DNA from: Nemertoderma westbladi
Lineage: Eukaryota > Animalia > Xenacoelomorpha
Length of the DNA: 41,574 nt
Direction: 5' to 3'
Assembly: GCA_032718475.1 (NCBI GenBank)
Contig: JAUCBJ010007591.1
Span: 1 to 41,574, forward strand
Below the pieces are notes generated by a model, which made no database searches, was not told the DNA's origin, and was given only the letters and a program-made list of their open reading frames with translations. This document shows, in pieces, positions 11,787-40,585 of this stretch (the stretch's first letter is position 1; every line of letters starts with the position of its first letter). The position numbers and the translations under genes were made by a program.

Positions 11787-12090
11787 AAGCCTAAGCTTGA
11801 CACTAGAACAAAATTGCCTCCGCTTTGCAGGACATTGCTTTCGCCGTGAGGACCAGCCAGTGCATAATCTTGTACTTTGGCAGCCTCATGGAGTGAATAA
11901 GCATGGTGGACAGCCCATGACTTTCTTGAGACGCATCTTAAAGGACACTGGCCTTGAAGATGCGGATGATCTAGCAAATGTCATGGGTGATAGGGAGTTG
12001 TGGCGGTGCAATTTTGTTGACAAGCCGGCACAGCATTCTTAAAAATGCAGCTGCAATGCAGCATGCCGATCCTAGTAGTAGTAGTAGTAG
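11787..12090 (+). mobile_element. 5'-truncated RTE insertion with (TAG)n tail, inside the LINE
   Basis: TSD (G)CCTAATTCCT at 11776-11786 and 12090-12100. Removing the insert restores the host frame KTLKELG-KESTITL. Confidence 0.92.
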
Positions 12091-12267: not shown

Positions 12268-13338
12268 TCAAAAGGGATTTTTGTATTTGACATCCATGAG
12301 TATCCCTTTAATCCAAGAACGAGCAGATTCTGATTGTAGAAGATTGTCAGGTATACAGGACTTATGATGGGCCAGTGCAGCTGCATAAAGGCATATAAAA
12401 TTTCCACAGTCAAAGTGATTATCCTGAAGAGGAAAGTTGAATATCCGACTGGAATCGATACATCTCCACTTTACATGCTTGCTAGTAGTGGAGCAGTCAT
12501 GCTTTTTGTAATGATTATCCATGTTTTTAAATACATTGCATAATCTCTGAGTGATAATGTTTGGGGTACTATTCCCCAGTGGGCATAGTTTGCATATAGT
12601 CTTTGTCTGGACGTTAATAACATGCAATACATGATGTGAGTTCGAACATTCAGGAACAATAATAAACTCTATGGGGACTGATCTCTGAAATTTGATTAGG
12701 AAATAGCTTCTAGCTATGTATTTAGCTGCTGCAGCTTTATTGTAATTATGGTTAAGAAGATTCTGGGAAAGCTCATCGCTTATCCATACGACATTTTGCT
12801 GGCTGTGCTCTAACATCCAGCAGAAGGCATTCACAGCACCGTTATGTAGCCAATTCTTACCTTCTAATGAGCGTAATTCAATGTCAGTTGGTTGTGAGAC
12901 CCCATAGTAGAAGTCCTCAGTTCTAGAGGTATGAATGTTATAGGCTATAGTGTCAATTTGCTGATATATTTCTGCATTGGATGGTGGTTTGCTTGATTTC
13001 CCGGGAATAACACAGACATCATTCCCAGAGGGATTTAATGCATCAGACCAGACATTTTGGTGACTTACTATAGTGGATGTAGGTTGTGCTTCACTATTGA
13101 AGGTAATCAGATCAGCCGGTTTGTTGATCTGAATGCTGTCCCTTTCTTCCCATGTGCCATCATCTAAGAGATCATCAACAACAACTTTGTTGATGTCGAT
13201 AGCGTTTGGGGAAACAAGGATATTATCCCCGGGACATACGCTTACTGTTGGAGTGATATTTTCCATGGGACGTACAGTTACAATAGGAGTGATAATTTCC
13301 TGGCTGTGGGAGTGATATTTACCCCAGAACATACACAA
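12268..13338 (-). CDS. Ulp1/SENP-like C48 cysteine protease domain of the LINE
   Basis: WLHNGAVNAF, IIVP..SNSHHVL and QDNHFDCGNFI motifs. The expected catalytic Asp position reads LCPLG. Confidence 0.75.
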   Translation of the reverse strand: MCMFWGKYHSHSQEIITPIVTVRPMENITPTVSVCPGDNILVSPNAIDINKVVVDDLLDDGTWEERDSIQINKPADLITFNSEAQPTSTIVSHQNVWSDALNPSGNDVCVIPGKSSKPPSNAEIYQQIDTIAYNIHTSRTEDFYYGVSQPTDIELRSLEGKNWLHNGAVNAFCWMLEHSQQNVVWISDELSQNLLNHNYNKAAAAKYIARSYFLIKFQRSVPIEFIIVPECSNSHHVLHVINVQTKTICKLCPLGNSTPNIITQRLCNVFKNMDNHYKKHDCSTTSKHVKWRCIDSSRIFNFPLQDNHFDCGNFICLYAAALAHHKSCIPDNLLQSESARSWIKGILMDVKYKNPF

Positions 13339-15339: not shown

Positions 15340-15800
15340 ACTGAAAGAAACAAAACTGTAACCTGTTCTATTGACTTTCGATTATTGTTTTTGGTTAGAA
15401 TACTATTACTACTATCAGCATGCTGCATTGCAGCTGCATTATATATATTACATATACAACAGTATATTAAGAATGATGTGCCGGTTTGTCGACAAAATTG
15501 CGCCGCCACAACTCCCTATCACCCATGACATTTGCTAGATCATCCGCAACTTCAAGGCCAGTGTCCTTTAAGATGCGTCTCAAGAAAGTCATGGGCTGTC
15601 TACCATGCTTATTCACTCAATGAGGCCGCCAAAGAACATGATTAAGCAGTAAACACCCCCAAGGTTGTATAGAATCTGATTGGAGATGTGTTAATTGTAC
15701 TTGACACAGTGAACCCGTCACAATTGGTTAGAATATCGTGCCACTGTAACCTGCTCATTTCCATCAATTGATAATTTAACATTGAGGCGGGATATTAATA
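15340..15800 (+). mobile_element. MITE-like copy split by an RTE insertion
   Basis: AAAACTGTAACCTGTTC... (15353) and CGTGCCACTGTAACCTGCTC...GAGGCGGGATATTAAT (15737-15799) match the 690 family. Confidence 0.75.
15403..15723 (-). mobile_element. 5'-truncated RTE 3' end
   Basis: Reverse complement of the RTE tail. 12-bp TSD TTGGTTAGAATA at 15391-15402 and 15724-15735. Confidence 0.88.
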
Positions 15801-17215
15801 CGAGTCTTTAGTTCCCGCGGGTTTTAGTTTCATATTCCCTAACAAATTATTTCCCGAACAACTTGGTTCCTCAAGAAGCCGGATTTTTGTGCGGTTGCGG
15901 CTGCAGCCACCGCCACCCGGCCTTGTGCAGCCAACTCCCAGCATCCCATGATGACATTGAGCCACAGCTGAATTTCTGATTCAGTCTTATCAGCATCATA
16001 AAGATGCAGATTTTTACCGTAACTGTTGTACTTGTACCGGTAGTATAACTAACTGGTATTACGAACTGCATTCAGCATCAAAAACATTCATGGGCCTCCA
16101 ATCCGGAAGCCCTGCTTATACCCCAGATAGTAAAAGTACTGACTTGGGTATTTTGACTATAGTATAGTATTTGGGTGATGGTGGTTTATTGTTGTAAATC
16201 GAAACATTCCGCAAAGTTTATTATGGTATTTTTTCATTCGGGATTTTTGTTGTAATAATTTAACTATTATTACTGTAATGTTTTGGTTAGTAGTGTAATA
16301 AAATATTACAACATACAGAAACAAACAGAACACAATAAACCGATATTAAGCCTAGCGACTTCAGATTTACGTACACTGAGCAGTTGCACCTGCTTTTATA
16401 CAAAAACACCAACAGAATAGAATGCACATAACATATGGAATGTTTTCGATTGAAAGGAATTTTCTATCCAATCACAACTGTAAAGACTCCATATGGGGCG
16501 AGCCATATGCTATATGTTTGTAAACCACTACCGTATGTATATCACTACACCCCCTTCGAGCTCCGTAGGAGTTTATTATAACCGACGAGGGCGTCGCCGT
16601 TGCCGAGAAGGGGTAGCGAGTTCAGGGGCTGGTGTGGCTTAGTTTTGGAACCCAACGTACAGTTGTGTGTCCAGGTGGGGTCGACGCCCGCCGCGGTCAT
16701 GGGACTGGTGGACAAAGGGGTGTCCAGACCCGAATGGGGGGGGGGGGGGGGGGGGCGCACTGGAGAGTGGTTTGGAGGTGTCGACAAGGAGGAAATGTCG
16801 ATTTCTCGTCACGGTATGGCTGGAGGGGGTTCGCACCGTCTATTGCCGATTGGGCCCAACCTCGACCTCGACTTGTGTACACAGCCGTGCGAGTGAGTGG
16901 GGGTCCTGGATGACCACGGGGTCATCCGGGTCCGCAGGGAGTGATCGTACACCCCCTGCGCGGGAGAAAGCCTCATGTTTTTTTGTACATATAGAGAGTT
17001 TTTGTTTTGTACATTTTTTAATCAAATGTTGATGTATTTTTCACTAGGGTGGTAAAATAGAAAATGGAAGGAAATTCGAATGTTGAAGTTTTACACCACA
17101 ACAGAAAAATTATTCGCAGGCTATTTGGACAGCTCAATCAGTATTAAAAAGAGGACTCATCAGAAGCTATGTTACCAAAAGCATTACTTGTGATTCTGTG
17201 CCGAGATTCTATACA

Positions 17216-18779: not shown

Positions 18780-21400
18780 AGCACACAAATGGCCTCACAG
18801 GCGTCAGTTATTTCCTGACTGGCTGGAAGCCTGACTTACCGCCACCATTGAGATGTAATGGCCAACGATTATTTGAGTCCTATTCTTGATGGTCTTTCTG
18901 GACATTGATGATCTTTCTGGATATTGATGATCTTTCTGGACATTGATGATCTTTCTGGACATTGATGATCTTTCTGGACATTGATGATCTTTCTGGACAA
19001 ACCCTGGGACGCCAGGGAGGCCACATAGTGATGGGGAGAGGGATTCTTGAGTTGGAGGCTACTCTCAGACCAAACCAGCCATTATTGGTGACTCTGAGGA
19101 AAATCCCTAGACTAATCTCAGTTAACTCCCTAACATTAGGAAACCCAATGTAACAAAGCGAGCTGACAATCCTGCCAGACAACTTTGCTTTAGTGTGAGA
19201 GTGTACAAGAGCACTGAATGTGGGACTGGACAGAGTGATGAGGTTATAATTAAGTACATGGGAGGTGGTTGGTAACTTGCCCCCGCCTCAGCTGATAATA
19301 GTGATAATAGTGATAATGGTGTAATTGTTCTATTGTTAATCCAACTGCACATGCAGCATTGGATAAAATAGATCAATTCTCAAAAGGCATCTTCCGTTGC
19401 CATTTCTGATGTTCTTGAAGACTTGCTAAGAAGTTTCCTAAGATGTGGTAGGTGGTTCTGTTCTCGATGTGTGCTATTAAGCCACTTGTGTTGTCCCAGA
19501 AGAAAAGGTGGAAATGTATACCACAATCTTCACGCAGCTACTGATGGAGTAGATCAGCATTCATTCTTAACATTCGTGGGAGACTTTAATGCAAGTCTGC
19601 ATCAATCACCTACATCACTCTGGGTCTATAGCGATAGTGTTTCGAAATTCCGTCCATCTTCAGGATTTCATATCTGGAAATGGATTGTTTTCGGCTGGAA
19701 CCCAGTTCAAGAAGCGAACTGGAAACCTATGGACCCATTGTGGTCCGAGTGTTCAGAAGTCCCATATATACCATATTCTGTAGGAAATACAGAGGCTCTA
19801 TACAAGACCCTAAGGCATTTACACTTTGACCCCTTTCCAGTGATCACCGCCATATTGTGACCAAGCTAAGAGGTAGTCTGTGTGGTAGCAGAACAACGAA
19901 ATCTACCTGGCCGCAGCATGACTGGTCCTCTCTGTTGACAAGACAACAGTCCGGTGTGAGATCCAGCTTCACACTAAAGCTGAGCAACATGTATGAGGTT
20001 CTTGCCTCTGATAATCTGATGGAGCTTATCAATAAGTGGGTTGATGCCATTAACAATGCCGATGATAAAATGCAATCAGCCCAGGAATGGTAATCGACAA
20101 TCTGCTGACTGTGCGGAAAAGTCAACCAACCACCAAGGTTAAGACTGAGTGCATACAGCTGAATGCATCAAAGGTTGGAAAACCCACTTTGAGAAGATTC
20201 AAACCAATGACAGGGTATTGCTTTATAACTTTAAGGTACATCATGTATCTGAGTTTGTGCTCACAGAAATCCCCTCCCCATTGGTGACATCTTCTTTGCT
20301 GAAATCAAGACTACAGCAAGGAGCATCAAGTCCCATAGTGCTAGTGGAGTAGATTGCGTCCACATTGAGATCTTTGATGTTATTGAGTATTTGGAGCTCA
20401 TTTATTCTATTATCATGGACAAATTAGTCCCGTCCCTAAGAAGGGCAACCTAATTGAAGAACGATTCTTTTTGTGGAATTTCGTTTATCTAAATTGCTGC
20501 AAAGCTATACAATATTAAATCGCATCGGGGTTCCTGTTTAGAGACTGTTATGCGGGGTCTTTTGACCACCTTTATAAAGATGGGGTGATGGTAACACCCC
20601 CTACTGACACAAGAAGTAGAGGAAATCCAGAAAAGTACCTCACTGATCTAGACTTTGCTGATGACTTTGGGGTACTGTCAGAATCACTAGAAGGAGCCCA
20701 CAGGCTCTTCTGCTCATTGGAGCAGGTTGCTTCTAGTGTTGGTCTTTTTGAAAACTCCATAAAGACCAAAATTTTGACAGTGCACTTTGACAGCCCTCTG
20801 GAAACGTCTGATCGTAAGGGCATAGGCTTCAGGGATGGCTTGCTTGAGCACGTGGATGAATTCTTCTACTTGAGATCATGGATCCGGAATTCAGGTGAAG
20901 AAGACCTTTAGATACGTAAGGGGAAGGCATGGACAGCGTTAAATAGTCTGTCCAGGTTATATATCGAAGTCCAATAGAATACAACGAAATATCAAGGTTC
21001 GATTATTTATGGCAGTAATAGTACCAGTACTCTTATATGGGACTCCTATATGGTTCATTGTGTCAAGTACAATGAACACATCTCATCGGACTGTATACAT
21101 CATTAAAGGTGTTTCATTAGTTCACCCAAGCTTGACATTTGAACAGAGCCGCCCCCACTTTGCAGGGCATTGCTTTCGCCATTAGGACCAGCTAGTGCAC
21201 AATCTTCTGCTTTGGCAGCCTCATGGAGTGAATAGGCATGGCGGACAACCAATGACTTTATTGAGATGCCTCTTAAATAACTCTGCCCTTGAAGATGCGG
21301 ATGTCATGGGTGATAGCGATAGGGAGTTGTGGTGGCGCAATGCAGCTGAAGTAATGAAAATGATGCTGCTACAATGCAGCCTGCCGATAGTAGTAGTAAT
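18780..21400 (+). mobile_element. Long decayed RTE element (5' UTR, endonuclease, deleted RT, 3' end)
   Basis: VGDFNA (EN), PVPKKGN, DLDFADD (RT), LLWQPHG and (TAG)n tail. The 5' boundary is approximate. Confidence 0.85.
18887..18999 (+). repeat. 19-bp tandem repeat (GGACATTGATGATCTTTCT), about 6 copies
   Basis: Head-to-tail, near-identical units with no spacers. Confidence 0.95.
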
Positions 21401-21942
21401 CGTACTTACTAACTCAGACCTCGTGTGTTAAAGTAACAATAATTTCCAGCGTTAATTTTTTATTCCATATTTATTACCCATTGCCTAGAGGATGCAGAAA
21501 AGATTGCCTAATTGCCTAGTCAAGACAATAATCCCAATACGAATTGGCTTTGCCTGCCAGTATATAATTAATTGGGCTATATTCCATGCAGAATTAGTTT
21601 ATGAATGTGACTGACAAAGAAGTAACCAGCAATTAAGACAATCAACCTCTATCACCCCAATAAAATGGGACGACAAACCCCAAAGGGAACACACACAGCG
21701 GGGGTCAGAGGTTACACCTCCGGGAGGGAGAGAGTGACAGCAGCGGGGGGGGGGGGGGGAAACACTCCCAGAGAGATGGGAGGGTGAGAAGTGAGTTATT
21801 AGCCAATGGGGGGAAGGCATCCACTGAATAATGTAATACTGCCAACTAGTGAAATATATTACCAGTCATTGTGTCATTCCATTCACTTTTAGTAAGTCAG
21901 TTAGTTAGGGCAGTACCGTAACTCTTATCACCGTCTCCGTCC

Positions 21943-22064
21943 ACTGCCACCATCGTCATTCAGTTATTGCTATTTTTTAAAATAGCAATAACTGAATGAC
22001 GATGGTGGCAGTTTGAGCACAGGTTGAATGAGTACCGGTAATACCGGTACTAATTCAACCTGTG
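21943..22064. repeat. Two adjacent near-perfect inverted repeats
   Basis: 34-bp perfect arms at 21943-22012 and 23-bp arms with one mismatch at 22018-22064. Confidence 0.9.
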
Positions 22065-22499
22065 TTTATACTTTATTGTGATCATTATACATACCAAGGA
22101 CAATAAGACTCTCAATTAGAACTCCTTTCACATGCACACGGCGGGGACGCGTAGTTAAGACAACCGGATAAACCGGGATCCTCGGTGGATCCCGTCATAA
22201 AGAAGTTATAAGGTACTCATAACTGTGTGATGCTTTATCGTTATACTGTAGCAATATCGGTATTGAAATAGTGAATTAGACCTACAGTAGCCTAGTTGTT
22301 ATCCGCATGTCATTATTTTACATTTATATTCTAGTTCCTCTAAATACTCATTTATCATAAAATAGTATCGCATATTTTCTATTTTAGTTATCCGTTAAGT
22401 ATACTGTGCTACAGTACATGATTAATGTTATAATACTATTGATATAATGTCATATAGTTGTCGAAGAATATATAGAGGGAAAATATAGCGTAGTTAGAA

Positions 22500-23206: not shown

Positions 23207-24549
23207 ATGGGTGGAGGTTTTCTACGATTTGATATGATCCTGTTTTTATCTATATGTTCATTAATTATCTCTTGCCATTCGCTCATACGAGATGATACAG
23301 GGGACTTTGATGATAAAGCTAAAACAGCGTCGTTGAATGCCTCTCACCACGACTATTGTATCCTTGGAGCTGGACCTGCAGGTCTGCAAATGGCCTACTT
23401 TCTAAAATCGTCCAACAGAGATTACGTTGTTATTGAAAGAAATAACATGAGCGGCTCTTATTACACCAAATTCCCCAGACATCGAACCCTAATAAGCATT
23501 AACAAGCTGTACACCGGACAAGCTAACAAACGATTTAACGAGCGCCACGACTGGAATAGTTTACTGAGTGACAACGACGACCTAGTATTCGGGAAATACA
23601 CAGAACAAATGTTTCCCCAAGCTGATCACCTTATCACCTACCTCAATGAGTACGCCAATACCTTGAAACTGAACATTGATTACAACACCGAGGTAACCTA
23701 TGTATCTAGATTCAAGGACGATAATGCAGCCAATGTTGAAACATTTATTGCTTTCACAAAAACCCAAAGAGTGTATACTTGCAATAAATTCATTGTAGCC
23801 ACTGGATGGGCTTTGCCACACGATGGGGGTTTTAAGGAAAAATTTATCTTGGGGTATGAAGACATGGACATGGATGTTGCACAGTTCCGGAACAAACGGG
23901 TCCTTATTATTGGCAAGGGGAATAGCGCGTTCGAGACAGCCAATCATATCAGAGATGTTGCAGCTGCTATAACAATGGTTTCTAAGAGACGCCCCGTATT
24001 AGCTTGGCAATCCCACTACGTAGGTGATATTCGAGCGATAAATGCTGAGTTCTTTGATCTCTACCAGTTAAAATCTTTAAATATTGTAGCGCAAAGAGAT
24101 TTTAAAGACATAAAATTTGTTGTAAACAATAAAACCAATAAAATCTCGTTGGAAAAAGACCTTGTTGAAGCTGATGTCGTTCCTGTCAATGAATTCGATA
24201 AAGTTATCCGTTGCATCGGATTCAAATGGGATAACAGGATCTTCGGGTCTCGAGTTGCCCCTGGCAACGCGTTTCCAACCTCGGAGAAGTTTCCGAAAAT
24301 CGGACAGGACTTCCAAAGTCGGACGCCCGGGTTGTACTTCATTGGGACTATCGCTCACTCTCTGGACTATAAACTCTCCGCGGGGGGCTTTCTTCACGGT
24401 TACCGCTACACAGCCCGGTCTGTCCACAATATTCTAGAACAACGTTACCATGGAGTACAATGGCCGTCAAAGACTGTTCCTATGTATTCTATGGAAACCT
24501 ACATGATGAAGCGAGTTTCAGAAATGCCGGGACCATACCAGATGTTTAG
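23207..24549 (+). CDS. FOXRED2: FAD-dependent oxidoreductase domain-containing protein 2-like, exon 1
   Basis: Signal peptide, GAGPAG, FPRHRTLISINK, RHDWNSLLS, GKGNSAFE, HYVGDIRAIN and SAGGFLHGYRYT. Donor AG/GTAAAA, phase 2. Confidence 0.92.
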
Positions 24550-25119
24550 GTAAAACATTAACTACTTACATAATTGGTGAAAAGTAGAACTTCCCAGCGA
24601 TATGATCCGAGAGTATTTATGTACCGAACGTGCGCAGCGAGGGAGGTTACAATAAATACACTTCTAGGGCCAAAAGCACTGAATAGTACACTTTCCACAC
24701 AATAATTTTCATAATTTTGTTACATTATAGACTGTATCTCAACGTAGCGGCGTTCTGAATACTTAATTTTTATCTTTAATATTTTAATGTTTAGGACTAT
24801 TATTGAAATTCATATCCTATTTATGCAATTATTAATTAATTTCATTTACTGTAACAACTGTACGGGAAATAATGTTACACATAGCATAAGCATACAATGG
24901 CTATCATCAATGGATAATTTTTTGCAAGACATGTTCTAGAAGTTTATTGTTTCTAAGTGATTAATTTATTAGTTAGCTGTGTTACGAAATTACCACCAGA
25001 ACGTTGATAATTTGACATGTAATAAATTATGTTATTTGTTTGGAACCAACTCAACTATTTTATACAGTATCCCAAACATATCCTTACAAATCTGATTTAA
25101 TATATTTTGTCCTTATTAG

Positions 25120-26286: not shown

Positions 26287-27430
26287 TGTAAAGGCTTTTG
26301 CGTAATTAGCCGGTTATTTTCCCCGTAAAGTACTCTGTAGTTAGTTTACTAGGCATAAAAGGGCCGTGTCCTTACTGTACTGGTGTTTTAGAGGACATAA
26401 AGATAATTTCTTCTGTAGGTGTACTTTAGAGGACATAATCCGCAATTTTGTGACGCAATAAGCCGGATACTCTTGAAAACAGTGTGGATACCATGACGAC
26501 GGCTAACAGCTGATATTGCCACGTCGAACATTTCTTTGTTCTTTGTTCTCTCTTTGTTCGGTCGACCAATCAGAGCGTTTTTTGACTCTGTGTTGGAGGT
26601 TGGATACAGAAACTCATGATTTCAGTGTATATGTTTTTGCCCAGAGCCTAAGAACACCGGCTTTTGGCACCTCCGTGTTTCAGTCTTTAGCTTAACATTA
26701 GTAGGCTTAATTATAGAACGTATATCTGTTATCTAATCTTACAAACCAAACCAATTCATACCTTAACATTACTGCTTTTGCTGTCGGTTATTCATTATAT
26801 TTGTTGATGAAATATTATATCGGAATACTGATCCATAATCAGACACCCCAATCTTCTTGATATACTAAAGGTTAGAGAGACCGGATACATATAACGATTG
26901 CGACTTACATTAAGTGGTTTGAAGTGTATCTAATGCTATTTCATAGGCCCGACATAAATTGTCTGTTGCTCTCTTTATATGTGACTAAAATTAGTGAAGG
27001 TCGGCAGATTAGTGTGCAGTATTGTGCAGCGTTGTGTATGATTGTAACTGATAACAAAGCATCTCCTAAATAATGCGCCATATACGTTAATCTATAGCCA
27101 TTCCGTTGTGTCTAGTTTAAGTCATAACTCTGTTTACATATTTAGAGCGCCACGTCCTAAAGGAACTGTTAATATTTCCCGAAAGTGAATAATATTTGTC
27201 AGAGATTATATATTACGATCAGTCGAATAATACAGTAGGCTTACACCTCAATCAAGTTAAGCTTCCGAATTCAGTCTCCCGGGTATATCCAGCGGGTGAA
27301 TGATTGCGCATAGACTGGCTTCGGCTAATGTAGTGTATCAAATACTCGTCATAGGCTAAAGACTGTCTATCATCTAAAAGACATCCCAATTTGGCAGGTT
27401 AAACTGTCAAAGGTCTTAAAAGCGCAAACA
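26287..27430 (+). repeat. 5' LTR (1144 bp)
   Basis: Starts TGTAAAGGCTTTTGCG and ends AAAAGCGCAAACA. Collinear homology with 38215-39386. Shared CCAATCAGAGCG box near 26566. Confidence 0.88.
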
Positions 27431-27441
27431 ATAACAGATAT
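27431..27441 (+). promoter_or_regulatory. Putative self-priming primer-binding site ATAACAGATAT
   Basis: Abuts the LTR end and is the exact reverse complement of 26722-26732. No TGG tRNA-type PBS is present here. Confidence 0.6.
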
Positions 27442-27713
27442 TGCTTCTGGATTGCGGCGTAAGCAATCAAGTCGAAAGTACCGGTCGACCGGAAACCTGT
27501 AGGCCTGAATGCCTGATCACCCGGACCGGTACTTACAGCAGTACAGGTACAGCAGTATTATTCGATTTTGATTATTATCTACCAGTAGGCCTTAATAATT
27601 AATCAGGGACTGCAGCCCTGGTTTTTTATTGAGATTTTACTTATTTCTGTCAAGTTTTATTTATTTGTAGGCCAGTATTGAGCAGAAGGCGTGTAAGCCT
27701 GCTCAGATTGTAC

Positions 27714-28290
27714 AGATAATTTGTAGGCTTGACTATTGTCGAACTGTTGTTAAGTCTGAACGTATTGCAGTGTGTGTAGAGCATCTGTCCGATAAAGTGC
27801 TAGTTAGGAACGTAGGGGCTTCAAATGCTGTGAGGTAAACCCCCTGTGAAAGAATAAGTCGTACTACTAGGTTAGAACGCATACTAACTAATCATTTCGG
27901 AGTCTGCATATACTGTAGTTTATTTAGGCTTGATAGTAGTCTGCCATCGTTTGGTCTGTACTTTATTTGTGTAGTCTGTACGGGTAGCGTATAACTTTAT
28001 TTAGATAATTTGTAGGCTGGATAGTTGTATGGCTGTTGTTGGGTTTGAGGAAATTTCGGTGTGTGTAGAGCACCTGTCCGATAAAGTGCTAGTTGGGAAC
28101 GTAGGGGCTTCAAGTGCTGTGAGGTAAACCCCCTGTGAAAGAATAAGTCGTACTACTAGGTTAGAACGCATACTAACTAATCATTTCGGAGTCTGCACAT
28201 ACCGTAGTTTGTTTGGGCCTGATAGTAGTCTGTCAGTATTTAGTCTGCATTTTGTTTGAGTAGTTTGTACGCGTAGCGTAATATTTATTA
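27714..28290 (+). ncRNA. Tandem 289-nt structured RNA element (2 copies) in the retrotransposon leader
   Basis: Long G-U-rich stem with compensatory changes around a 122-nt core that differs at only 3 positions. Confidence 0.7.
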
Positions 28291-29236
28291 TTCAGAGTTT
28301 ATGCGATTATTCGCAACATTCATATCCCCAATTTTATTCCTACAGTAATTGTGCTTGTTATACATACCGTTATAGTTAAACTAACCCCGGTACTACATCA
28401 GGGCTGCTCGGCGTAGGTAAAGACTGGAGATTTTATGCTTTGGTCACTCCGGCAGATACCGTGGTTCTTTTAGCTGTTCAAGTATTTTTAACTACTAATT
28501 ATTTGTTGTACAAGTACTTGTACCTAATTTAGGGTTTAGTGTACAGTACTTTCCGAAGGTGATTAGTGTGTAGGCAGTATATTTGTGTTGTAAAGTGGTT
28601 AATAGGCACGTTGGTTCTGGTAGACCGCGGTAATTAACTTCTGGGTAGGAACACTCCGTGATACATAACGTAGTACCTATAGCGATACGGTTATAGGTCG
28701 TCAGACGGTGGTATTTTCCTATCTGGACAATGCAGTATATTTACTACTACTTATTATTTTCAAATACAGTAGTAACCTGTCCGTTGTAATAACCAGATAT
28801 TCTAACCCTTTGTTAGGCTGGTTTGTAGATTCCCTGTAAAATTACCCTAAAAATTCGTATTTGTAATTTTTGTGTTTATTTAGAGATTGTAATCTCACCC
28901 CGATTGTACGTAATTTGTAGTAATAAGTAACTTAGGTAAATTAGAATTATTTGTTTTAGTGTCCAACAAGTAGCACTTCACTGAGAGCGCACAGCTTCTG
29001 TGTAGTGACTCCCCCCAGAAATAATAACATTTATTTCAAACATTGACAAAAACCCATTTCAACGGGTATATATATATTATAAATCAACTCAAACGATTTA
29101 TAAATAGTAGGCCTGCCATACAACAATTAGGTCTCAATATCAGTTGGACTACTGCTTAAATAACGGTAATAAAGTAAGTTAAAGTAACCAAGTAACCCTT
29201 AAAATTCAGAAATTCAATTATTCTAAAATAATTGAC

Positions 29237-29484
29237 ATACCGGTATTTACAATAGGCTTATTATATTTATTTCTATAAATTTTAGGCTGAAATCATACCG
29301 GTATTCTGTAATTAATTCTAGTCTGTAATTATACTTATATATATACATTATAAGTGTAAGCTGTATACCGGTATTCACGATAGGCCTATTATATATATAT
29401 AAATTTAGGCTGAAATCATACCGGTATTCTGTAATTAATTATAGTTACTAATAATACTTATATATACTATAAGCATACCGGTAT
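29237..29484 (+). repeat. AT-rich tandem region with five ATACCGGTAT palindromes
   Basis: Copies start at 29237, 29295, 29365, 29418 and 29475. Higher-order repeat of about 123 bp. Confidence 0.85.
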
Positions 29485-29619
29485 TCTAATATTATATATA
29501 TATCACGCTACACTGAGTAGCAGTATCGGTAATTAATTAATAGGCTAGCAGTTACTGCTGAATTACTAGACTTGCTTAGACTGTAATATAGCAGTAGGCA
29601 TTCAACTGTGCAAACAAAC

Positions 29620-32600
29620 ATGTCTGATACTAAGCAGAACCTGTCGGACAGTTTATTAGATGTAACTATCTGCGACTCAGATAGGGATGTAGAACCGTCT
29701 AGACCTAAGTTCAGTTCACCTCCCACTGTGAGAAAGGTCATCCCTCCAGTAGTAATATCAGAACCTAGGCTGGTCCAACATCGTAGGTCTATCATAGGCA
29801 CTCGAGCTCAGGTCAAGCGGGACCAAGAAGCAGCGGAACAGCAACAACCCGCGAGCCAAGAATTTATTCCTCAGCGGCCCGACAGCTCCAGTAGTGAGGA
29901 TACTGTAGAGCTGACACCCGAGCGCGGAGCAAAGATGACGGATGCGGTTTATTCGGATCCCCTTCTCATCCTTCCTACAGCCGTACTCACTAGGTTATTG
30001 ATTGCGGTGGAAGAACACCAGATTGATTGGGCGAGAAATAAGCGATCGACTAAAGATAGTTATGCGGGATACACAAGGGAAGAACTGAAGTCTATTGTCG
30101 AGTCGCAATGGAACTTCCCCGGACCCGGACTCCCGTTTGATTTATCGGAAGCTGCCTGGGAAGACATACACCGGATGGGAGTAGCCAAGGAAACCATCGA
30201 TCCAGCTGTGTGGAAGAGGTCCGCAGCCGGATACGCACAGGGATTCTTCAGCTCTATAGAGCGATTAAAAGAACAACTGTTTCAACAACCCCAAGGACCT
30301 CAAGAGCAGGGACAACTGCTTTATCAAGTTAGAGAAAGAATTCTGCGAATCAGGCTAATCTTATCGGCCTTTGAGGAGGCTTCTAAAAGAAGACAAGACA
30401 CGTCGTTGCAAGTTGCCGTAAAGACTTGGTTTCAACGGGTGAGTCTCCAGGTTCAAGGAACGGCTCAGTGGAAAGCTCAGCTGGAGGAGCGCTCAACCCA
30501 TGGAGAATCAACAGAGGCTACTTTTTCCCAAGTGGAAAGTGAAGCGACAGCAGAGAAACCGCATAAGAGGGATGCCATTGACATCTATCTGTCAGACTAT
30601 CAGCGTTTTTTAGGAGATGAAGAGTTGAGGAGAAGGTTAGATGGACTCAGCCCTAATAGTGAAGGAACCCAGCGTGTGTTGGACGCCATCGATGTGGAGA
30701 TGAGAGCTGCGAACCAAGCCAGATTTGATGAACGCCTTCGCATCACTAGAGTCCAAGAAGAACAAGTGAAGAAAAAACGTATAGAAGATAGAAAGATAGC
30801 AGCAGCAGCAGTGGCAGTGGCAGAAGCGGAAAGAAAAGCGGCAGAAGTGGATAGAAAAGCTGCAGAGGCAGCGGCAGAGGCAAAAGCGGCAGCGGCAGAA
30901 GCGGAAAGAAAGGCGGCCGAAGCGGAAAGAAAAATAGCAGTGGCAGAAGCAGAACGGAGAGCGGCTGAAGAAACCACCCAATTAGAATTGGAAAACATTC
31001 AGGAGAATCAAGACTGCATAAATAAACAGTTAACAGCTAGTAATATGCAGATGATGAATCGATCTACTCCCAAAAGACAGGGATATACATCATCTGAGGA
31101 AGGCGATACCACCGATACTGAAGGCAAAGAAAATAGCTCTCGTCTAAGCAGACGTAGAAGAACATCCCACCGTCAGAAATTGCCTGATTTGCCTCCAGCT
31201 GTTAGAAGGCAACTAAATAACACCAACTTAGGTAGTACAGAACCCACAGACCAAATAATTACAATAGAAAGACTCCCTACTATAGTAGATGAGCCTGAAA
31301 TAATTAGGCCTGTTCCCGAAGCCACCCTTTCGGTGGCAGAGACACCTGTACTCCCTGAACCTACCTCTAAATTCCCTCTGCACAGCACCAAGCTACCTGT
31401 GCCCAGCAGAACAGCCCATGAGACAGTTCATGTCCTGGACTCCGAGCGAAATATTCATGATTTGTCGCCCGTTGTCCCTCGTCCGCCCGCTACAACGTTG
31501 GCGACTCCCGCTTCGGCGGTCGAATGGGTGGATGAGAGACGAAGGGGGATGGATCTCCTGCTCGGGCAGATGCAGGAGACCGTTCAGCAATTCAAGGGCA
31601 CAGTGAGGGAAAGTAGGTTAGAGTTGCAAGAAGTGCAGCAAAATATCGCGTTAGAACGCGATAAATTAGTAAATACACAAAAGGGTATACCACCACCCTC
31701 GGTAATGATGTGTCAACCTGTTAGGTCTGAAGTATCTCATGCGCAAGGTGTGGAGCCTACACGCATATATACTGCTAGCGAAGTAGAAACTCCTATAGTG
31801 AACCCTATTAAGGGTAATTATAGACCTGTTGATAATGATATTCCTTATAGACCTGATCATAATCCGAGAAATTTATATACCGATAACTCGATATTAAATA
31901 ACACGATGGCCCAAGAAAGTTTTACGCGTCAAATGGCTAGAACCGAAGCCCGGCAAGCGGTAAAGGTGGGAGAGATAGTCAAGTTCAATGGAGATGAGAT
32001 GAAATGGTTACCTTTTAATGAATATTATAAAGATAACATACAGAACTCTGTACTATCTAATGGAGAGAAACTTAGATTCCTCATCGAGTGCTTGGAAGGA
32101 TCTCCCAAGTTAATGGCGTTAAAGTTTATTGGACATCCAGACGGATTAAGACAAGTTTGGAATACACTAAACATCAGGTATGGTAATAGGAATAACATAG
32201 CTAAATATTTGTATGCAAAATTAGTAGCGCCCCGAAAGTTCATTAGCAGCGGGATAATAGAGTTTTCCGATGAGATTCAAGAGATCTGTAGACAATTAGA
32301 TTGGTTAGGTAAGTCTCATGAATATCAGAGTTCTATGGTTATTGGAGCCGTGGCTTCTACTTTACCGAAGGGTGGAGTAGGTACACGCTGGGATAAGAAA
32401 GTGTTATATATGATGGAACAACAACGACGAGACCCTACCATGGCTGATCTCATGTCATTCTTAGATGGAGAAGTGAAATTACAGCTCCTAAAACTGTCCA
32501 GAGAGAAGACACCGGAAAACAAGGTAAGTGAGAAACCCATCTCTAGGAGAAAGGTAACACCAGTGTGTTATACAGACGACGGCGAAAGCCAGACTTCTCA

Positions 32601-35559
32601 AGGAGAGGATAGCGGGAAAGACACTGACAGATCTTATTATGTCATTAAAATGCCTAAAGATCAGGTAAGTAAATTCAAGTCTCGAACCAATGACAGGAGA
32701 GAACAGGTAAGAAAAACTCCTCCTACGTCTCCTAAGAGAATTCAGGTGAGAAAGCCCGAAGAAAAAACAAGTGTGCACAATGTTACTCAAAGTAAGGTAA
32801 GTAACATCAAACCGAAATGTGCGCTATGTGACGGGACCCATCGCTTGAATATGTGTGATGAATTCCTAAAGAAATCATTAACTGAGAGACGGGAAGTCAT
32901 GTGGGATAAGCGGTTGTGTTATAATTGCCTCAGACAAGGACACCAATGGCGAACCTGTTACTCCAACACAAGGTGTGCAAAGTGCGGTGCGAAACATCAT
33001 ATCTTGTTGCACACTGAATTCGAGCGAAATAGTCCGAGTCAGGTAAGTGATTCCGAACTACATGTCCAATTCAGTGATGTGAACGACACGGATCAATCTG
33101 AGATGGAAGGATTCTATACGGACGAGTTCTCCGACGAAAACGAATCCTGTTACATGATAAATACCGCAGTGTATCGAGCACTCACTTATGAAAAAGATAC
33201 AGACATTGACCTCACTCTAACTACTTCTGATCGACAACCATCTTGGAAAGCGCCAACTTCCAATGTAGGGATCCGAGAATTTCCTGTGGTACAGGTAAGG
33301 GTCCACGGACCAAAAAGGAGTTATGTAGTGAACGCCCTCCTTGACTCCGGTAGTACGGGAACATTCATCGACAAAGAGCTAGCCGAAGACATATTTGCTG
33401 GACAACCCAAGTTCCGAACCAAGCTAAACATGTCAGGAATTATGCAGGTTTGGAAATCTACAGTAACAGCGGATTATTATGTAGGTGCGTTGTCCACCCC
33501 CCAGGACGAACTAGGAGAACATAGCATAAGGTCAGTGAAAATGGTGGCAATAAAGAACTTCGCTACCACCCAAGTGGAACCTTATAACTGGGACGAGGAC
33601 GATTTCACCCAGCAGCTGGAAATACCTAGATTCGACACCGATTACCCTGGAGTGCAAATACTCATCGGTCAAAACGCGCATGAAGCGCTCGAGACATTGG
33701 AAAAACGGCCCGCTCAACCGCAACCATTACAACCTTATGCGATAAGAACTAGAGTGGGTTGGTACTTTACTGGCCCTTCCCGTAGAACTCTCATGGAAAG
33801 ATTACCGAAAGATCAGGTATATCAAGTGCGAGAATGGGAAGTTGAGAACAGTGAGTTAGACGATCCAACTGAGGGAACTCCATACTCCTCAGACAACGAC
33901 GATATACATCAACTCTTCGATGAGGAGAATGCCATCGATCTCCTTAAGGAAAATGAGACTTGGCAAAACCAAGTAAACTTATGTCAACTCCTTCTTCCAT
34001 CAGATCGAGACGACTATAACGACGAGCTTAATGAAGTCATTGAACGTTATAATGCCAAGACTCGGGATGAACACGCCGTGAGATTCTTTACTCAAGAGGC
34101 TGTAGAGCCCAACTCCTACGATAAAGCCCTATCGGTGGAGGAAGAAAGAGCCAAGCAGATCCAAGCGACAACTACTCGTTTTCTTAAAGATCAAGGTAGA
34201 TATGAGATCGGTCTTCCTTTCCGAAAGCGAGAACCAAAGTTCATTAACAACAGACCCTTGGCGGAGAAAAGAATTGCTCAACTACATCGACGCCTTACGG
34301 CAAATTCTTCAGCTAAAGAAATGTATCAAACGCAGTTGAAGAAGTTTATTAGCAAGGGATATGCGGAGCTAGTACCGGAAGAAACACCTATAACTGAGAG
34401 AACGTATTATTTAACTCACCATTACGTTCCCAAACCCGGTAAACCCCATGAAGTACGAGTGGTGTTTGACGGCTCCGCCCTTTATATGGGCCAATCTCTT
34501 AATTCTGAATTGTTACCCGGACCCAACTTACTCCAATCCTTGTTGGGAATACTATTAAGATTAAGACAATATTCCATTGCTTTCGCCTCAGATATAGAAG
34601 GTATGTTCTTACAAGTCAAAGCGCTGGATAGGGATCGAGATAGCCTACGATTTCTGTGGTGGCCTGAAGGAGACCTCAACAAGAAACCGGTGGAGTACTG
34701 GATGACCATCCAAGCCTTTGGGATAATCTCGAGTCCTTCAAACGCCTGTTCCGTGGTGCGCACCACTGCGGATGACAACCGAGACGCCTTCTCTAAAGAG
34801 GTGATCGACAATATCAAACGAGACATCTACATGGACGATAATCTAAAGTCCCTTCCATCAGTCGAAGAAGCCATTGAGGTCGCTAAAGAAACGGTAGAAT
34901 GCTTAAAGAAAGGTGGATTTCGATTAACTAAATTCACTAGCAACTCCCGTGAGTTTCTGGAGTCGATCCCGGTAGAAGATCGAGGAGCAAAAGACCTAGA
35001 TCTAATAAAGGATGATCTCCCAGAAACTAAGACCCTTGGTTTGAAATGGGACACAGAAAGATATATCCTGTTTTTCCAACTAAAACAGCGAGATAATCCA
35101 GTTCGGACTAAACGGATTTGTTTAAGTATCCTGAGCACTTATTTCGATCCATTGGGATTTATTAGCCCAGTTATATTGATTGCTCGGAGTTTAGTACAAC
35201 AAATGTGGCTTGAAAACCACTCATGGGACGATCCACTTAAGGGAGAGTTATTAAAGAAGTGGATGAAATGGGAAGATTCTCTACCAGCCATCGAAAACTT
35301 TATAATTTCCCGTTCATATTTTGGTCATGTTCTCCCTACGTATTCCTATCAACTCCATGTGTTTGGAGACGCCAGCGATATGGGAATAGGTATAGTAGCC
35401 TACCTAAGGGTGGAAACTCCGGACGGAATCAAAGTCGCCTTGGTTACCTCTAAGGCATTGATAAACAACAAGTTGAAAGTTCCTCGAGCGGAGTTAAAAG
35501 CGGCTCTATATGGATCTCAGATCACTCTATTAAATAGCATCCCAGATCTGTATGCATGA
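29620..35559 (+). CDS. BEL/Pao Gag-protease-RT-(partial RNase H) polyprotein, 1979 aa from the first ATG
   Basis: DUF1759-like KFNGDEMKW...LNIRYGN, three Cys/His knuckles (CALCDGTH, CYNCLRQGH, CAKCGAKHH), LLDSGS, RVVFDGS, YMDD, HVFGDAS and PRAEL. Ends before the rest of RNase H and integrase. Confidence 0.95.
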   Translation: MSDTKQNLSDSLLDVTICDSDRDVEPSRPKFSSPPTVRKVIPPVVISEPRLVQHRRSIIGTRAQVKRDQEAAEQQQPASQEFIPQRPDSSSSEDTVELTPERGAKMTDAVYSDPLLILPTAVLTRLLIAVEEHQIDWARNKRSTKDSYAGYTREELKSIVESQWNFPGPGLPFDLSEAAWEDIHRMGVAKETIDPAVWKRSAAGYAQGFFSSIERLKEQLFQQPQGPQEQGQLLYQVRERILRIRLILSAFEEASKRRQDTSLQVAVKTWFQRVSLQVQGTAQWKAQLEERSTHGESTEATFSQVESEATAEKPHKRDAIDIYLSDYQRFLGDEELRRRLDGLSPNSEGTQRVLDAIDVEMRAANQARFDERLRITRVQEEQVKKKRIEDRKIAAAAVAVAEAERKAAEVDRKAAEAAAEAKAAAAEAERKAAEAERKIAVAEAERRAAEETTQLELENIQENQDCINKQLTASNMQMMNRSTPKRQGYTSSEEGDTTDTEGKENSSRLSRRRRTSHRQKLPDLPPAVRRQLNNTNLGSTEPTDQIITIERLPTIVDEPEIIRPVPEATLSVAETPVLPEPTSKFPLHSTKLPVPSRTAHETVHVLDSERNIHDLSPVVPRPPATTLATPASAVEWVDERRRGMDLLLGQMQETVQQFKGTVRESRLELQEVQQNIALERDKLVNTQKGIPPPSVMMCQPVRSEVSHAQGVEPTRIYTASEVETPIVNPIKGNYRPVDNDIPYRPDHNPRNLYTDNSILNNTMAQESFTRQMARTEARQAVKVGEIVKFNGDEMKWLPFNEYYKDNIQNSVLSNGEKLRFLIECLEGSPKLMALKFIGHPDGLRQVWNTLNIRYGNRNNIAKYLYAKLVAPRKFISSGIIEFSDEIQEICRQLDWLGKSHEYQSSMVIGAVASTLPKGGVGTRWDKKVLYMMEQQRRDPTMADLMSFLDGEVKLQLLKLSREKTPENKVSEKPISRRKVTPVCYTDDGESQTSQGEDSGKDTDRSYYVIKMPKDQVSKFKSRTNDRREQVRKTPPTSPKRIQVRKPEEKTSVHNVTQSKVSNIKPKCALCDGTHRLNMCDEFLKKSLTERREVMWDKRLCYNCLRQGHQWRTCYSNTRCAKCGAKHHILLHTEFERNSPSQVSDSELHVQFSDVNDTDQSEMEGFYTDEFSDENESCYMINTAVYRALTYEKDTDIDLTLTTSDRQPSWKAPTSNVGIREFPVVQVRVHGPKRSYVVNALLDSGSTGTFIDKELAEDIFAGQPKFRTKLNMSGIMQVWKSTVTADYYVGALSTPQDELGEHSIRSVKMVAIKNFATTQVEPYNWDEDDFTQQLEIPRFDTDYPGVQILIGQNAHEALETLEKRPAQPQPLQPYAIRTRVGWYFTGPSRRTLMERLPKDQVYQVREWEVENSELDDPTEGTPYSSDNDDIHQLFDEENAIDLLKENETWQNQVNLCQLLLPSDRDDYNDELNEVIERYNAKTRDEHAVRFFTQEAVEPNSYDKALSVEEERAKQIQATTTRFLKDQGRYEIGLPFRKREPKFINNRPLAEKRIAQLHRRLTANSSAKEMYQTQLKKFISKGYAELVPEETPITERTYYLTHHYVPKPGKPHEVRVVFDGSALYMGQSLNSELLPGPNLLQSLLGILLRLRQYSIAFASDIEGMFLQVKALDRDRDSLRFLWWPEGDLNKKPVEYWMTIQAFGIISSPSNACSVVRTTADDNRDAFSKEVIDNIKRDIYMDDNLKSLPSVEEAIEVAKETVECLKKGGFRLTKFTSNSREFLESIPVEDRGAKDLDLIKDDLPETKTLGLKWDTERYILFFQLKQRDNPVRTKRICLSILSTYFDPLGFISPVILIARSLVQQMWLENHSWDDPLKGELLKKWMKWEDSLPAIENFIISRSYFGHVLPTYSYQLHVFGDASDMGIGIVAYLRVETPDGIKVALVTSKALINNKLKVPRAELKAALYGSQITLLNSIPDLYA

Positions 35560-36097: not shown

Positions 36098-38136
36098 ATG
36101 ACTGAGTTGATAGAGGATGATCTTGGTATCATGGAGCGATATTCCCTACCCTTGCAAGCGTTTGTTGATAGTTTAATAAGCGGCGACGCTAGTCAACCTA
36201 CTACAGAGGACGATGGCCGTTATATCGAACCGCCAATGTCAAAGGAACAGCTCATGCGTGAATTGGACTATAGAAAATTCACCGCTCGCTATATGCATCG
36301 TAAGAGTACGTATATCGACTTCTTAACCACTGGTCATCCTATCGATTTACACGATACGGACGATGTAGACACCAAAAGGGAAATGATCCTATTTAAATAT
36401 CATGCCCAGCGGAGTCAGAACGAAAAACTTAGAATCGAACACGAAAAATTCTATTCGAAATCGACTCAAAATAGAAGACGTTGAAGAACCGGATAAACGC
36501 AGTGACTTCAACGTATATTTGGAATTCTTGAGAGAAGTATGTAAAACTGGAGAAAGATCACCCACGTTTCCTCTACAAGACATGCGTCTTTGGCATTATT
36601 GCGATGAATTCCCTAGACCCAACCAACAAACGGAAAGACATAAACATCCGCGGAGACGTTGCGCTAAACACAGTTTTACTCGCTATACTTACGGGAGTTT
36701 CGAGCGAAACTTGTTCGACGTATCACCTACGCTCGCTCGACTCAAACAATCCTTAAATAAACCGATGATCAGAGTTCCGGAATACTCGGTCAGACCTCCT
36801 CATTCCCTAGTGAGACCTCAAACTCTTGATCCTAATAGTATAACAGATCCTCCTGAACTGTACTCACTGTTCACAGATCTCGTGTTACCCGAACAATTAA
36901 TCGGTGGCACTCCGGTAGTGGGCTCTTTAGATATTCGCCCATCTTACCTAGCCGGATTGGGACGCGGACATTTAATATCGCCGTTTAACCCGTATAATCG
37001 TCCCGGTCTAACCCCGATACAACCCGTCACCGAAGTCGAGGAGAGCGTTGTACGAAACGCGTTAGACACTATTCGGCAAAAGATCGGAAAAGGAACTTAC
37101 GATTGTTTGGAGAAACGTAAATTGCAGCAGCAAGTCCAAGCGGTAAAATAATTAGCTTTACCTCAGTTCGATCGGGAAATCCAGAATCTCGAAGAAGATA
37201 TCGAACTTGGACAAACCTACTCTCTACAAGAGTATTTGGACGAACGCTTCCAACGACAAGCGGAGGAAAATCAGCTCGAGGAGAAACACATCGAAATGGA
37301 TGAGAGAGAAGAAGCAGCTTTAGCCCAACCAGAAGCTCAAATCCTTATGACTGATCTCTATTCCAAAACCATCATTCATCCCTCGATGGTTCCCCATATC
37401 GGAGACAAACTCTTCGCCACGGTACAACCCCAACCGGTTGATATCAACCTAAGATCTCAAGATCTTATCGCTAATGCACCTATGTTACAATGTCCGCCAA
37501 TCGAGGCCACTCATATCGACCGTATACTCGTTGAACCTCCGGACAATCGAGCGGATCTTGTCCGTCGTATGGTACACAAGGTCAACCTATGCGCTAGACC
37601 TTTACCGAACTCATTTTATGGGATCAAAGACCACCCTTATTATGTCAATTTAACTCAATATTATATGGTGAAACCGGAGATCCTACATACAGTTTAAAGT
37701 TTCTACCATTGATAAATCACGCGGTGACTTGTTCATAAACTCGCATCCCGACTTACAAGAAGTTCATAGACAACCATATGAATATAAAGCCAGAGAACGC
37801 GAGTTGGAAAGAACCATCAAACCGAGGAAATTTCTCACTACTCACAGTCAACCTACCGCTCTCGTGCAAACGACCCATCAGGGACCAGTAAGAGCTGCTG
37901 TCTTGAAACGCACTCTAAAGGTTGTTCGACCTCATTCCACTGAGGTTGATATCGATCAACCGGGTACCTCGACTGGCGGATACACCGCCCATAACCCTAA
38001 ACCTTCCGATGCAATTGTATTGTACCCCTCACCCAGGAGTTATAGCCCTCCTAGTAAAGTGGCTCGCCCCAAAGAGAAAATTTCTCTTGCTAGCCTCAAA
38101 AAACTTCGTAAACGCCGTTCACGTAAGAAGGAGTAA
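36098..38136 (+). pseudogene. Additional 3' ORF of the element (about 680 aa), broken by two frameshifts and one stop
   Basis: ORFs 36098, 36402, 37236 and 37729 join via an extra A in GAAAAATT (about 36445), an in-frame TAA at 37149 and a shift at 37672-37695. Confidence 0.7.
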
Positions 38137-38214: not shown

Positions 38215-39386
38215 TGTAAAAGCTTTTGCGGACATAACAAGTCATTTTTCCCCACAATGTACCGTGTAGGTGCTTTAAGCGGACATAACAAGTCATTTTT
38301 GCCACAATGCGCCTAATACTCTAAAAGACTGGAGCTCAGATGACGAAATCTGTCAGCTGATTTTCTGTAAACGTGGAGCCTCTTTGTTCTGCTCAGCCAA
38401 TCAGAGCGATTTTCACTTTAACTTGAACAAGGGCCTATGTAAAACCGCGCAATGCATTACGGTCTTTGTTTACCTTTCTGAGCGAGAGAACTGCTTGGAA
38501 ATCTTCTGTACTTCTGATTTTGGAAGTTTCAGACTTTGCCTAAACATCTGATAGCTTTGATTACAAGGACGTAATCTATTATCTGCAATGCATTACTGCA
38601 ACGCATTACTGACAGCAAATCAACTCGGAACCTACCGACATACTGACTCATTGAACTCTCATTTATAACTAGTATGTAACACATACTGATTGTTCACCGC
38701 ATTATTTTACTTCTGTTATTAATTGTTGTTATATGGATATATATTGTTGATATATTTGGATAATACTGATGAATACTCATAAAACCACCCCCCATCTTCT
38801 TGATTACTGAAGGTTAGAGGAACAGGTTACCGGTAGCAACTGCGACTTACATTATAGTGGTTTTTGTGTGAATTAAATGCTATTTCATAATCCCTACATG
38901 TGTCAGTTGCGATCTTCCTTATATATGATCAAATTCAGTGACGGTCGGCAGATCAGTGTGCAGTAGTGTGAAGTAGTGTGAAGTCGTGTGAAGTAGTGTG
39001 ACAGATAATAAAGCATCTCCTAAAGAATGCACTATTTACGAAACTCATTAGCCATCTAGTTGTGATTAGTATAAGTCATAACTCTGTTTTTATACTTAAA
39101 GCGCCGCGTCCTAAAGGAACTGTTAATATTTCCCCGAAAGTAAATATATTTGTCAGAGATTATATAGTAACGATCAATGGAATAATACAGTAGGTCTGCA
39201 CCGCAATAACTTCAAAGCACCCGAATCCAGTCTCCCTTAACTGTGGGTGAAAGGTCGCTCACAGACTGGCTTCGGTGGATGTAACTTCAGTACATTAAAT
39301 AATTGGTCTAGGCTAAAGTCGATTTATAAACAAGAAGACAACTAAAATTGGCAGGTTAAACTGCTAAAGGTCTAAAAGCGCGAACA
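38215..39386 (+). repeat. 3' LTR (1172 bp)
   Basis: Starts TGTAAAAGCTTTTGCG and ends AAAAGCGCGAACA, followed by the TSD. Confidence 0.88.
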
Positions 39387-40158: not shown

Positions 40159-40585
40159 GAAGTAGCTCAAGCATTCTTAACATTCTGTCCATGCTGGGCT
40201 CTAACTGCTACGCCGGGTTCATTGTGTCAAGTTCAATGCACACATCTCCAACCAGACACTATATAACATTGGAGGTGTCTCATTGGTTCCCCCAAGCTTG
40301 ACACTAGAACAAAATCGCCTCCGCTTTGCAGGACATTGCTTTCGCCGTGAGGACCAGCCAGTGCATAATCTTGTACTTTGGCAGCCTCATGGAGTGAATA
40401 AGCTTGGTGGACAGCCCATGACTTTCTTGAGACGCATCTTAAAGGACACTGGCCTTGAAGATGCGGATGATCTAGCAAATGTCATGGGTGATAGGGAGTT
40501 GTGGCGGTGCAATTTTGTCGATAAGCCGGCACAGCATTCTTAAAAAAGCAGCTGCAATGCAGCATGCCGATCCTAGTAGTAGTAG
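40159..40585 (+). mobile_element. 5'-truncated RTE insertion with (TAG)n tail and 53-bp TSD
   Basis: Exact duplication of 40106-40158 at 40586-40638. Nearly identical to the 11787 copy where they overlap. Confidence 0.93.

Follow-up and report, generated by a model that had tools for sequence, protein, structure and literature searches.

A tandem structured RNA repeat, probably functional, in the 5' leader of a BEL/Pao retrotransposon from Nemertoderma westbladi

Locus and host element

The window considered here is the whole analysed stretch of 41,574 nt from Nemertoderma westbladi (contig JAUCBJ010007591.1, assembly GCA_032718475.1). Two head-to-tail copies of a 289-nt unit, differing at 42 of their 289 letters, are located 280-860 nt downstream of the 5' LTR of a retrotransposon and 1.3 kb upstream of its gag AUG (Table 1). 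The tandem repeat, already described in an initial annotation made from the letters of the window, is thereby confirmed.

Table 1. Features of the element and of its tandem units
Feature	Position	Strand	Remarks
5' LTR	26384..27430	+	TG...CA, 1047 nt
Primer-site position	27431..27441	+	exact 11-nt reverse complement of LTR 26722-26732
AUG-poor 5' leader holding both units	27431..29619	+	from triplet counts
Unit 1	27714..28002	+	predicted rod with branched head; outermost arm pairs partly decayed
Unit 2	28003..28291	+	predicted rod, 59 pairs alone, 73 in context with flanks (27987-28272), about one third G-U
Head of unit 1 (twin 28070-28191)	27781..27902	+	P3 closes junction: P4 arm, A-rich linker, small hairpin
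UCCGA with UCGGA	27788-92 with 27897-901	+	nested helix or pseudoknot
P3 helix	27801-07 with 27884-90	+	closes head junction of unit 1
P4 helix	27812-18 with 27841-47	+	covariation in one family contig
AG/GUAAA, splice-donor-like	27833..27839 (twin 28122-28128)	+	family-invariant; donor use putative
Longest family-invariant stretch, 19 nt	27849..27867	+	A-rich linker and hairpin base; candidate protein or tertiary contact
gag-pol frame	29620..35559	+	1979 aa: DUF1759, three Cys-His boxes, protease, RT (YMDD), RNase H
Second coding region, orphan	36098..38136	+	in pieces: two frame changes, one in-frame stop; lysine/arginine-rich tail at end
3' LTR	38215..39386	+	1172 nt, 78% of aligned letters like 5' LTR

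Judged from its sequence features, the host element is a BEL/Pao LTR retrotransposon belonging to a high-copy family and devoid of integrase. Its single gag-pol frame combines DUF1759, Cys-His boxes, a protease (weak match), an RT and a Peptidase_A17 RNase H, as is characteristic of BEL/Pao. The portion spanning RT and RNase H shares 29-45% identity with at least 120 BEL/Pao-type proteins, the best named ones originating from marine invertebrates. The frame ends within the RNase H; the match of all four full relatives is lost at 35523 and no integrase was found in the window. No target-site duplication was found around the LTRs, whose flanks are unmatched, and the two LTRs are only 78% alike, so that the 3' LTR probably originates from a sister subfamily. 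The copy is defective by its sequence and probably recombinant, and a 3' half derived from another subfamily may loosen the link between the units and the second protein. The longest unbroken piece of the second coding region (249 aa) belongs to no Pfam family, had no match among 1.84 billion representatives and gave no usable Atlas match. No relative was found either for the N-terminal 760 aa of Gag. An AUG-stop (27328, 39279) is retained at matching places in both LTRs despite their divergence, as is the start of a short uORF (27073, about 39027).

No TGG-type tRNA primer site follows the 5' LTR. The 11-nt complement found at the primer-site position occurs in 0.1% of 5000 LTR shuffles, or in 0.3% when four offsets are allowed, and suggests, for this one copy, a candidate self-priming of the Tf1 type in a BEL/Pao element; transcription would then be predicted to start at 26722. 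Passages of PMC6317226 describe self-priming for the Tf1/Sushi, Tcn1 and TAR/Houba/Osr-1 elements; no BEL/Pao case was found in that paper.

The remainder of the window contains several other features. An uninterrupted 448-aa FOXRED2-like frame (23207-24553) is 39-47% identical to at least 120 matches, of which the named ones are all animal, in line with an animal host, and it is shorter than these relatives, whose lengths are about 550-760 aa. Members of a MITE-like family, which have long inverted arms and end in poly-C or poly-G, are present at 684-929, 4237-4728 and 15724-15802. A dispersed SINE-like repeat of about 300 nt, without any tRNA or Rfam match, occurs in both orientations (3111-3410, 11775-12074, 21110-21409, 40276-40575 and, on the minus strand, 15467-15648). 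An Ulp1-type protease frame (12268-13338, minus strand; Peptidase_C48, E 3e-9) adjoins unannotated frames at 8556-11098, together with which it may belong to a DNA transposon. At 21943-22072, two near-perfect palindromes lie side by side, their arms measuring 34 nt and 31 nt.

Fold and family variation of the tandem units

The plus strand is predicted to fold at -88.2 kcal/mol for unit 1 (z -3.42) and at -98.0 kcal/mol for unit 2 (z -4.92), energies reached by none of 200 shuffles of either unit, whereas the minus strands fold no better than shuffles (z +0.98 and +0.20). Such strand specificity argues for a feature at the RNA rather than at the DNA level and supports the sense-strand RNA proposed in the initial annotation. 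The outer stem of unit 2 has 21 G-U pairs among its 59. The same annotation had described a stem of about 60 bp in each copy with pairing kept. This holds for unit 2. Unit 1 can form 54 of the 59 stem pairs (41 the same, 10 changed on one side, 3 on both sides, 5 broken), but its own best fold contains only 35 pairs (27743-80 with 27903-40). Among the 18 stem pairs that differ, 5 are broken when 9.1 are expected from random mutation (P 0.023); the retention of pairs exceeds that null only modestly (P 0.023 and 0.029), and in a two-sequence shuffle control the double changes are not significant (65/500).

As the initial annotation had noted, the cores of the two copies (27781-27902 in unit 1) differ at only 3 of 122 places (27784, 27806 and 27825); their arms differ at 30 of 133 (Fisher p 9e-7). 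A covariance model built from both cores matches only these (212 and 211 bits); the next best matches, at 26 bits, are inverted-repeat hairpins elsewhere. A possible third unit at 28497-28790 was rejected: a lax alignment outscored all but 3-10 of 300 shuffles and disappeared under strict scoring.

The stretch is present in five of the seven public sequence runs listed, four of organism A and one, with a small share, of organism B. In run X2, 13,698 contigs could be aligned to 1.4 kb, which indicates a large and varied family, although the summed contig depth cannot be read as a copy number. The junction of the two units is spanned by diverged contigs (record 27 of X5, with 33 differences, and record 21 of X4), so the tandem arrangement is a trait of the family. 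Joints skipping both units (544 and 554 nt, depth 17-40) were observed along with joints skipping about one unit (four of 285-291 nt and one of 289); the latter may be cross-copy alignments, and the contigs lacking one or both units may be dead copies or may mean that the units are dispensable. Homologues of the units were seen only in the runs of organisms A and B. In viral contigs, a DNA-pattern search returned no match for two patterns and an RT-protein search returned two pattern matches and no confirmed locus. The single match in metagenome contigs is a chance 20-nt match with unrelated flanks, and the three matches in prokaryote genomes have nothing alike beyond the search pattern. A loose end at 27798, from one X5 contig, has an orientation that would mean an antisense RNA end; its letters resemble a template-switch cDNA adapter, and this run, labelled 'DNA?', may therefore be cDNA.

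Within the family the core is far from constant: 26 of 91 core places vary among contigs in a variant table spanning 27799-27888, where diverged subfamilies are under-counted because they align poorly at 27801-27848, and one contig differs at 24 of 156. The near-invariant core of the initial annotation therefore holds only between the two copies of the window. Both copies share at 27823 a letter that is in the minority in the family, on which account their near-identity most likely reflects homogenisation between units and not invariance; conversion, which the annotation had itself named as a refuting explanation for the core identity, is thus probably part of the truth. The stretches that are invariant across the family are 27807-10, 27827-31, 27833-39, 27849-67, 27871-80 and 27882-86, of which 27807-10, 27833-39 and 27849-58 are unpaired, and the family differs by about 15% elsewhere in the core.

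The helices of the head can be compared with this variation. One X5 contig, to which the changes were assigned by matching depth (26.1), carries six changes in P4: two double changes (A-U to G-C and G-C to A-U) and two wobble-to-Watson-Crick changes, with all seven pairs being Watson-Crick. Six transitions placed at random leave seven Watson-Crick pairs out of seven in 1.3% of trials, or 14% if wobbles are counted. A third pair type may exist, since U is recorded at 27814 and A at 27845, though they could not be assigned to the same contig. In P3, two changes to wobble pairs are tolerated, but 25-44% of depth has a pair-breaking change at 27887 for which the opposite strand lists no compensation. 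Three changes lie in the loop of the small hairpin 27864-75. Of the pairings in the initial annotation, one fails and another rests on a private change. Its CUUCA/UGAGG helix is broken at three places that vary in the family, 27820, 27823 (changed in 65-70% of X1 and X3 depth) and 27832, without any partner change at 27833-35, and the X5 contig with the P4 changes retains only two of its five pairs. The covariation of AGCAU/AUGCU rests on A27825, private to copy 1: at this place, which is not covered in X4, 99-100% of the X1, X3 and X5 depth has another letter. Imposing the AGCAY/RUGCU helix on the fold carries a penalty of 10.1 and 7.9 kcal/mol. This alternative pairing is, until shown otherwise, best regarded as a coincidence of a single copy; the invariant 27827-31 leaves open a three-pair version of it.

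The UCCGA and UCGGA strands, unchanged between the copies, are predicted to continue the rod as a nested helix (p 0.86 and 0.93). Within a nested model, imposing the crossing hairpin that would turn them into a pseudoknot (27781-84 with 27797-800) raises the energy by 5.1 and 3.6 kcal/mol, before pseudoknot stacking; the inter-copy difference at 27784 improves this hairpin. At 27799, 25% of the X1 and X3 depth carries a change that both models would require to be compensated, and its partner places, like both strands themselves, fall outside the variant table. Loose ends in X4 and X5 display a change at 27899, the partner of which (27790) is also outside this table.

The rods could alternatively be generic or neutral: a fold-back that was duplicated and whose copies template switching keeps similar, perhaps together with A-to-I editing, or a repeat acting as an enhancer at the DNA level. 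The probably homogenised core is consistent with such an origin, as are the predicted folding of the entire leader into rods and the nature of the one-sided arm changes, 7 of 10 being A/G swaps opposite U that editing could fix as G-U pairs; DNA-level insulator or enhancer repeats are mentioned for the gypsy and ZAM leaders in passages of PMC3383448. This alternative nevertheless appears quite unlikely in view of the strand-specific fold, the double changes in P4 and the 19-nt invariant stretch lying in a core otherwise diverged by about 15%.

Start codons and candidate splice sites in the leader

A strong deficit of start codons extends over 2.5 kb ahead of gag. In 27076-29619, ATG is the most depleted of the 64 triplets (8 versus 42 expected, z -6.8), whereas CAT is near normal (32 versus 38), and host DNA at 1-8000 displays only a mild ATG depletion (151 versus 186). 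Six ATGs follow the LTR (27509, 27825, 28029, 28435, 28301 and 28730), and the first four of these are absent from 78-100% of family depth. This purge suggests that the unspliced leader is probably scanned by ribosomes, which in turn favors rods that can be melted over an IRES or a shunt. Ribosome shunting was disfavored, since bypassed stems would be free to hold AUGs. Other observations in this region include CTG as the most enriched triplet of 27076-29619 (56 versus 25 expected), additional predicted hairpins or rods between the LTR and unit 1 (27431-27690; z -4.8 for 27450-27649), and, just ahead of gag, another A+T-rich domain that folds strongly on the sense strand (28900-29620; z -6.0, 30 shuffles) and contains a 123-nt tandem repeat (29237-29466).

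The units might instead be a translation element, an IRES or an enhancer, where the 40S subunit would land and then scan the AUG-free 1.3 kb up to gag. This proposal is in keeping with the length of the leader (2.2-2.9 kb), the high predicted stability of its rods, the short uORFs of the LTR, including the AUG-stop common to both LTRs, and the lack of any AUG in 29001-29619 (8.9 expected), and IRESs are present in some errantiviruses according to part of PMC3383448. The purge is however also observed within the units (2 ATG versus 10 expected) and in the 283 nt upstream of them (1 versus 4.4, P 0.04), a distribution that fits end-to-end scanning better, and no Rfam IRES model was matched at E<=10. 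A role as a translation element is considered unlikely.

Another proposal is that the heads gate a splice donor or U1 site, and so would set the ratio of spliced to unspliced RNA or silence the poly(A) signal of the 5' LTR. No family variation was observed in the AG/GUAAA motif, which has four sense-strand occurrences in the leader (27833, 28122, 28415, 28934), and pyrimidine-rich, acceptor-like sites are found just downstream of unit 2 (28344) and upstream of the second coding region (35875). Against this, the 7-mer is not enriched across the window (11 seen versus 8.4 expected), the would-be introns are AUG-purged as well (4 ATG versus 23 CAT in 27835-29619), from which the unspliced leader seems to be translated, and the invariant 19-mer and the long rods are left unexplained; the proposal is given only an outside chance. 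None of the 11 joints listed has GT..AG ends and no loose end lies at 27834 among the rows listed (24 of 391 and 20 of 61), these being contig data with no bearing on splicing. A spliced-leader RNA was rejected, as no Sm-type site was found by pattern and the donor is deep inside a stem.

Comparison with known RNAs and proposed function

No Rfam 15 family was matched in the window at gathering threshold, the six matches at E 0.58-7.5 being far under it. Twister, HDV-like, hairpin, group I/II and lariat-capping RNAs were matched neither by covariance model nor by core motif; the initial annotation had likewise recognized no hammerhead, HDV, twister or group I consensus. In position and shape the units resemble the cis signals of several elements, but neither sequence nor model places them in any of these classes.

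A ribozyme had been among the options of the initial annotation. In this view the tandem units would be a novel ribozyme, self-cleaving or lariat-capping, that frees monomers or circles of 289 nt in the manner of retrozymes. The compact head, the invariant linkers and the possible pseudoknot would suit a ribozyme, and passages of PMC7761336 describe metazoan non-LTR retrozymes as tandem, highly paired and of about 150-300 bp, similar to the units. These passages also describe retrozymes as lacking LTRs or as having the ribozyme inside the LTR, while the units lie in an LTR element and have no hammerhead core (no CUGANGA on either strand of 27600-28400). No Rfam ribozyme was matched at gathering score or at E<=10, hairpin, twister, HDV and intron core motifs are absent by pattern, and cleavage in this part of the leader would detach the primer site from the template of reverse transcription. 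This option is very improbable.

Our preferred reading, to which we give about an even chance, is that the units are a protein-bound signal selecting the unspliced full-length RNA of the element for export or for dimerisation and packaging, like the RRE, MTE or psi. It is drawn from the leader position and from analogy with known signals. The stretch separating the primer site from gag is the usual place of packaging signals in retroviruses and LTR retrotransposons (for Ty1, PMC4974528). The RRE has the shape of a long irregular stem with a branched head, and the units are like the HIV-1 RRE and RxRE/RcRE in their size of about 300 nt and in their predicted rod with a branched head. HIV-1 and the host element both possess an extra coding region with a basic tail, as well as donor-like sites. 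Rev binds its highly structured element through a domain overlapping its NLS (PMC3856414, in part). The units differ from the HIV-1 RRE by their location in a 5' leader, their two tandem copies, their BEL/Pao host and the absence of an Rfam RRE match; the second protein of the element is without a detected relative.

The MusD MTE, the MPMV CTE and the RSV direct repeats are, as proposed for the units, cis RNA elements of LTR elements that serve unspliced RNA. The MTE and CTE lie in the 3' half of their elements. These two and the RSV repeats thus differ from the units, which lie in the leader, share no sequence match with them and have only a putative pseudoknot. The MTE requires a pseudoknot and a kissing loop (PMC3362945, in part), and RSV has two 115-nt direct repeats flanking src (PMC3856414, in part). 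Retroviral psi and the Ty1 5' pseudoknot region are, like the units, downstream of the primer site; the units are much larger, duplicated, non-coding and 1.3 kb from the gag start, and no palindromic kissing loop was identified in them. Passages of PMC4974528 and PMC3362945 describe competition between Gag binding and translation, respectively in Ty1 and as a leader switch in FIV, and the former adds that a packaging role of the Ty1 5' pseudoknot could not be demonstrated.

Among invertebrates, Cer1 of C. elegans is like the host element an LTR retrotransposon with an orphan 3' ORF, its lineage being Ty3/gypsy, other than BEL/Pao. According to passages of PMC10309623, the orphan ORF of this CERV system is expressed from a spliced mRNA and needed for the export of genomic RNA. 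The terms 'response element', 'stem-loop' and 'cis-acting' do not occur in the main text of that paper.

From their position and predicted fold, the units would form a structured sense RNA inside the unspliced genomic transcript, whose transcription we infer. An export or packaging element fits the leader of a BEL/Pao retrotransposon, a context absent from the initial annotation. The long, bulged, G-U-rich rod could serve as a scaffold presenting the branched head, whose invariant A-rich linkers might be bound by the zinc-knuckle domain of Gag, which carries three Cys-His boxes, by the basic-tailed second protein or by a host export factor. Unbound rods would be unwound by scanning ribosomes and Gag would be made; bound rods would block scanning and commit the RNA to export or to the particle. 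Duplication could provide avidity, or let pairing partners be exchanged, either from one unit to the other or across two RNA molecules. As each head contains a donor-like site, the signal would be missing from spliced RNA. The export or packaging reading is supported by the leader position, the strand-specific fold, the P4 covariation, the invariant A-rich linkers, the tandem arrangement in diverged members and the AUG purge. The one-sided P3 change at 27887 and the family contigs without units speak against it. So do classical hairpin data, by which ribosomes would not be expected to scan across rods of about -90 kcal/mol.

The functional sense-strand RNA without an Rfam match put forward in the initial annotation is thus supported by the plus-strand fold, the absence of Rfam matches and the variation in the family, and the units are best described, on these predictions, as a real and probably functional RNA structure that is uncatalogued, in a known kind of setting. 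A bolder proposal, which we hold to be distinctly improbable, is a BEL/Pao lineage with the programme of a complex retrovirus: a duplicated, pseudoknotted, RRE-like leader RNA with a built-in donor, an orphan basic-tailed protein that recognizes this RNA and is made from spliced RNA, and tRNA-free self-priming from the LTR. If true, it would be a Rev-like pair outside retroviruses, with its RNA half identified; if the orphan protein binds the units, an independently evolved pair of the Rev/RRE kind would be added.

In the titles and abstract openings of the open-licence literature, no report of a structured packaging or export signal in BEL/Pao was found. The lack of a described signal is of note since BEL/Pao is one of the main LTR lineages of animals. 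The compact duplicated unit and its thousands of natural variant contigs constitute a ready set for covariation analysis, and the units provide a testable handle on the choice between translating and packaging one and the same RNA.
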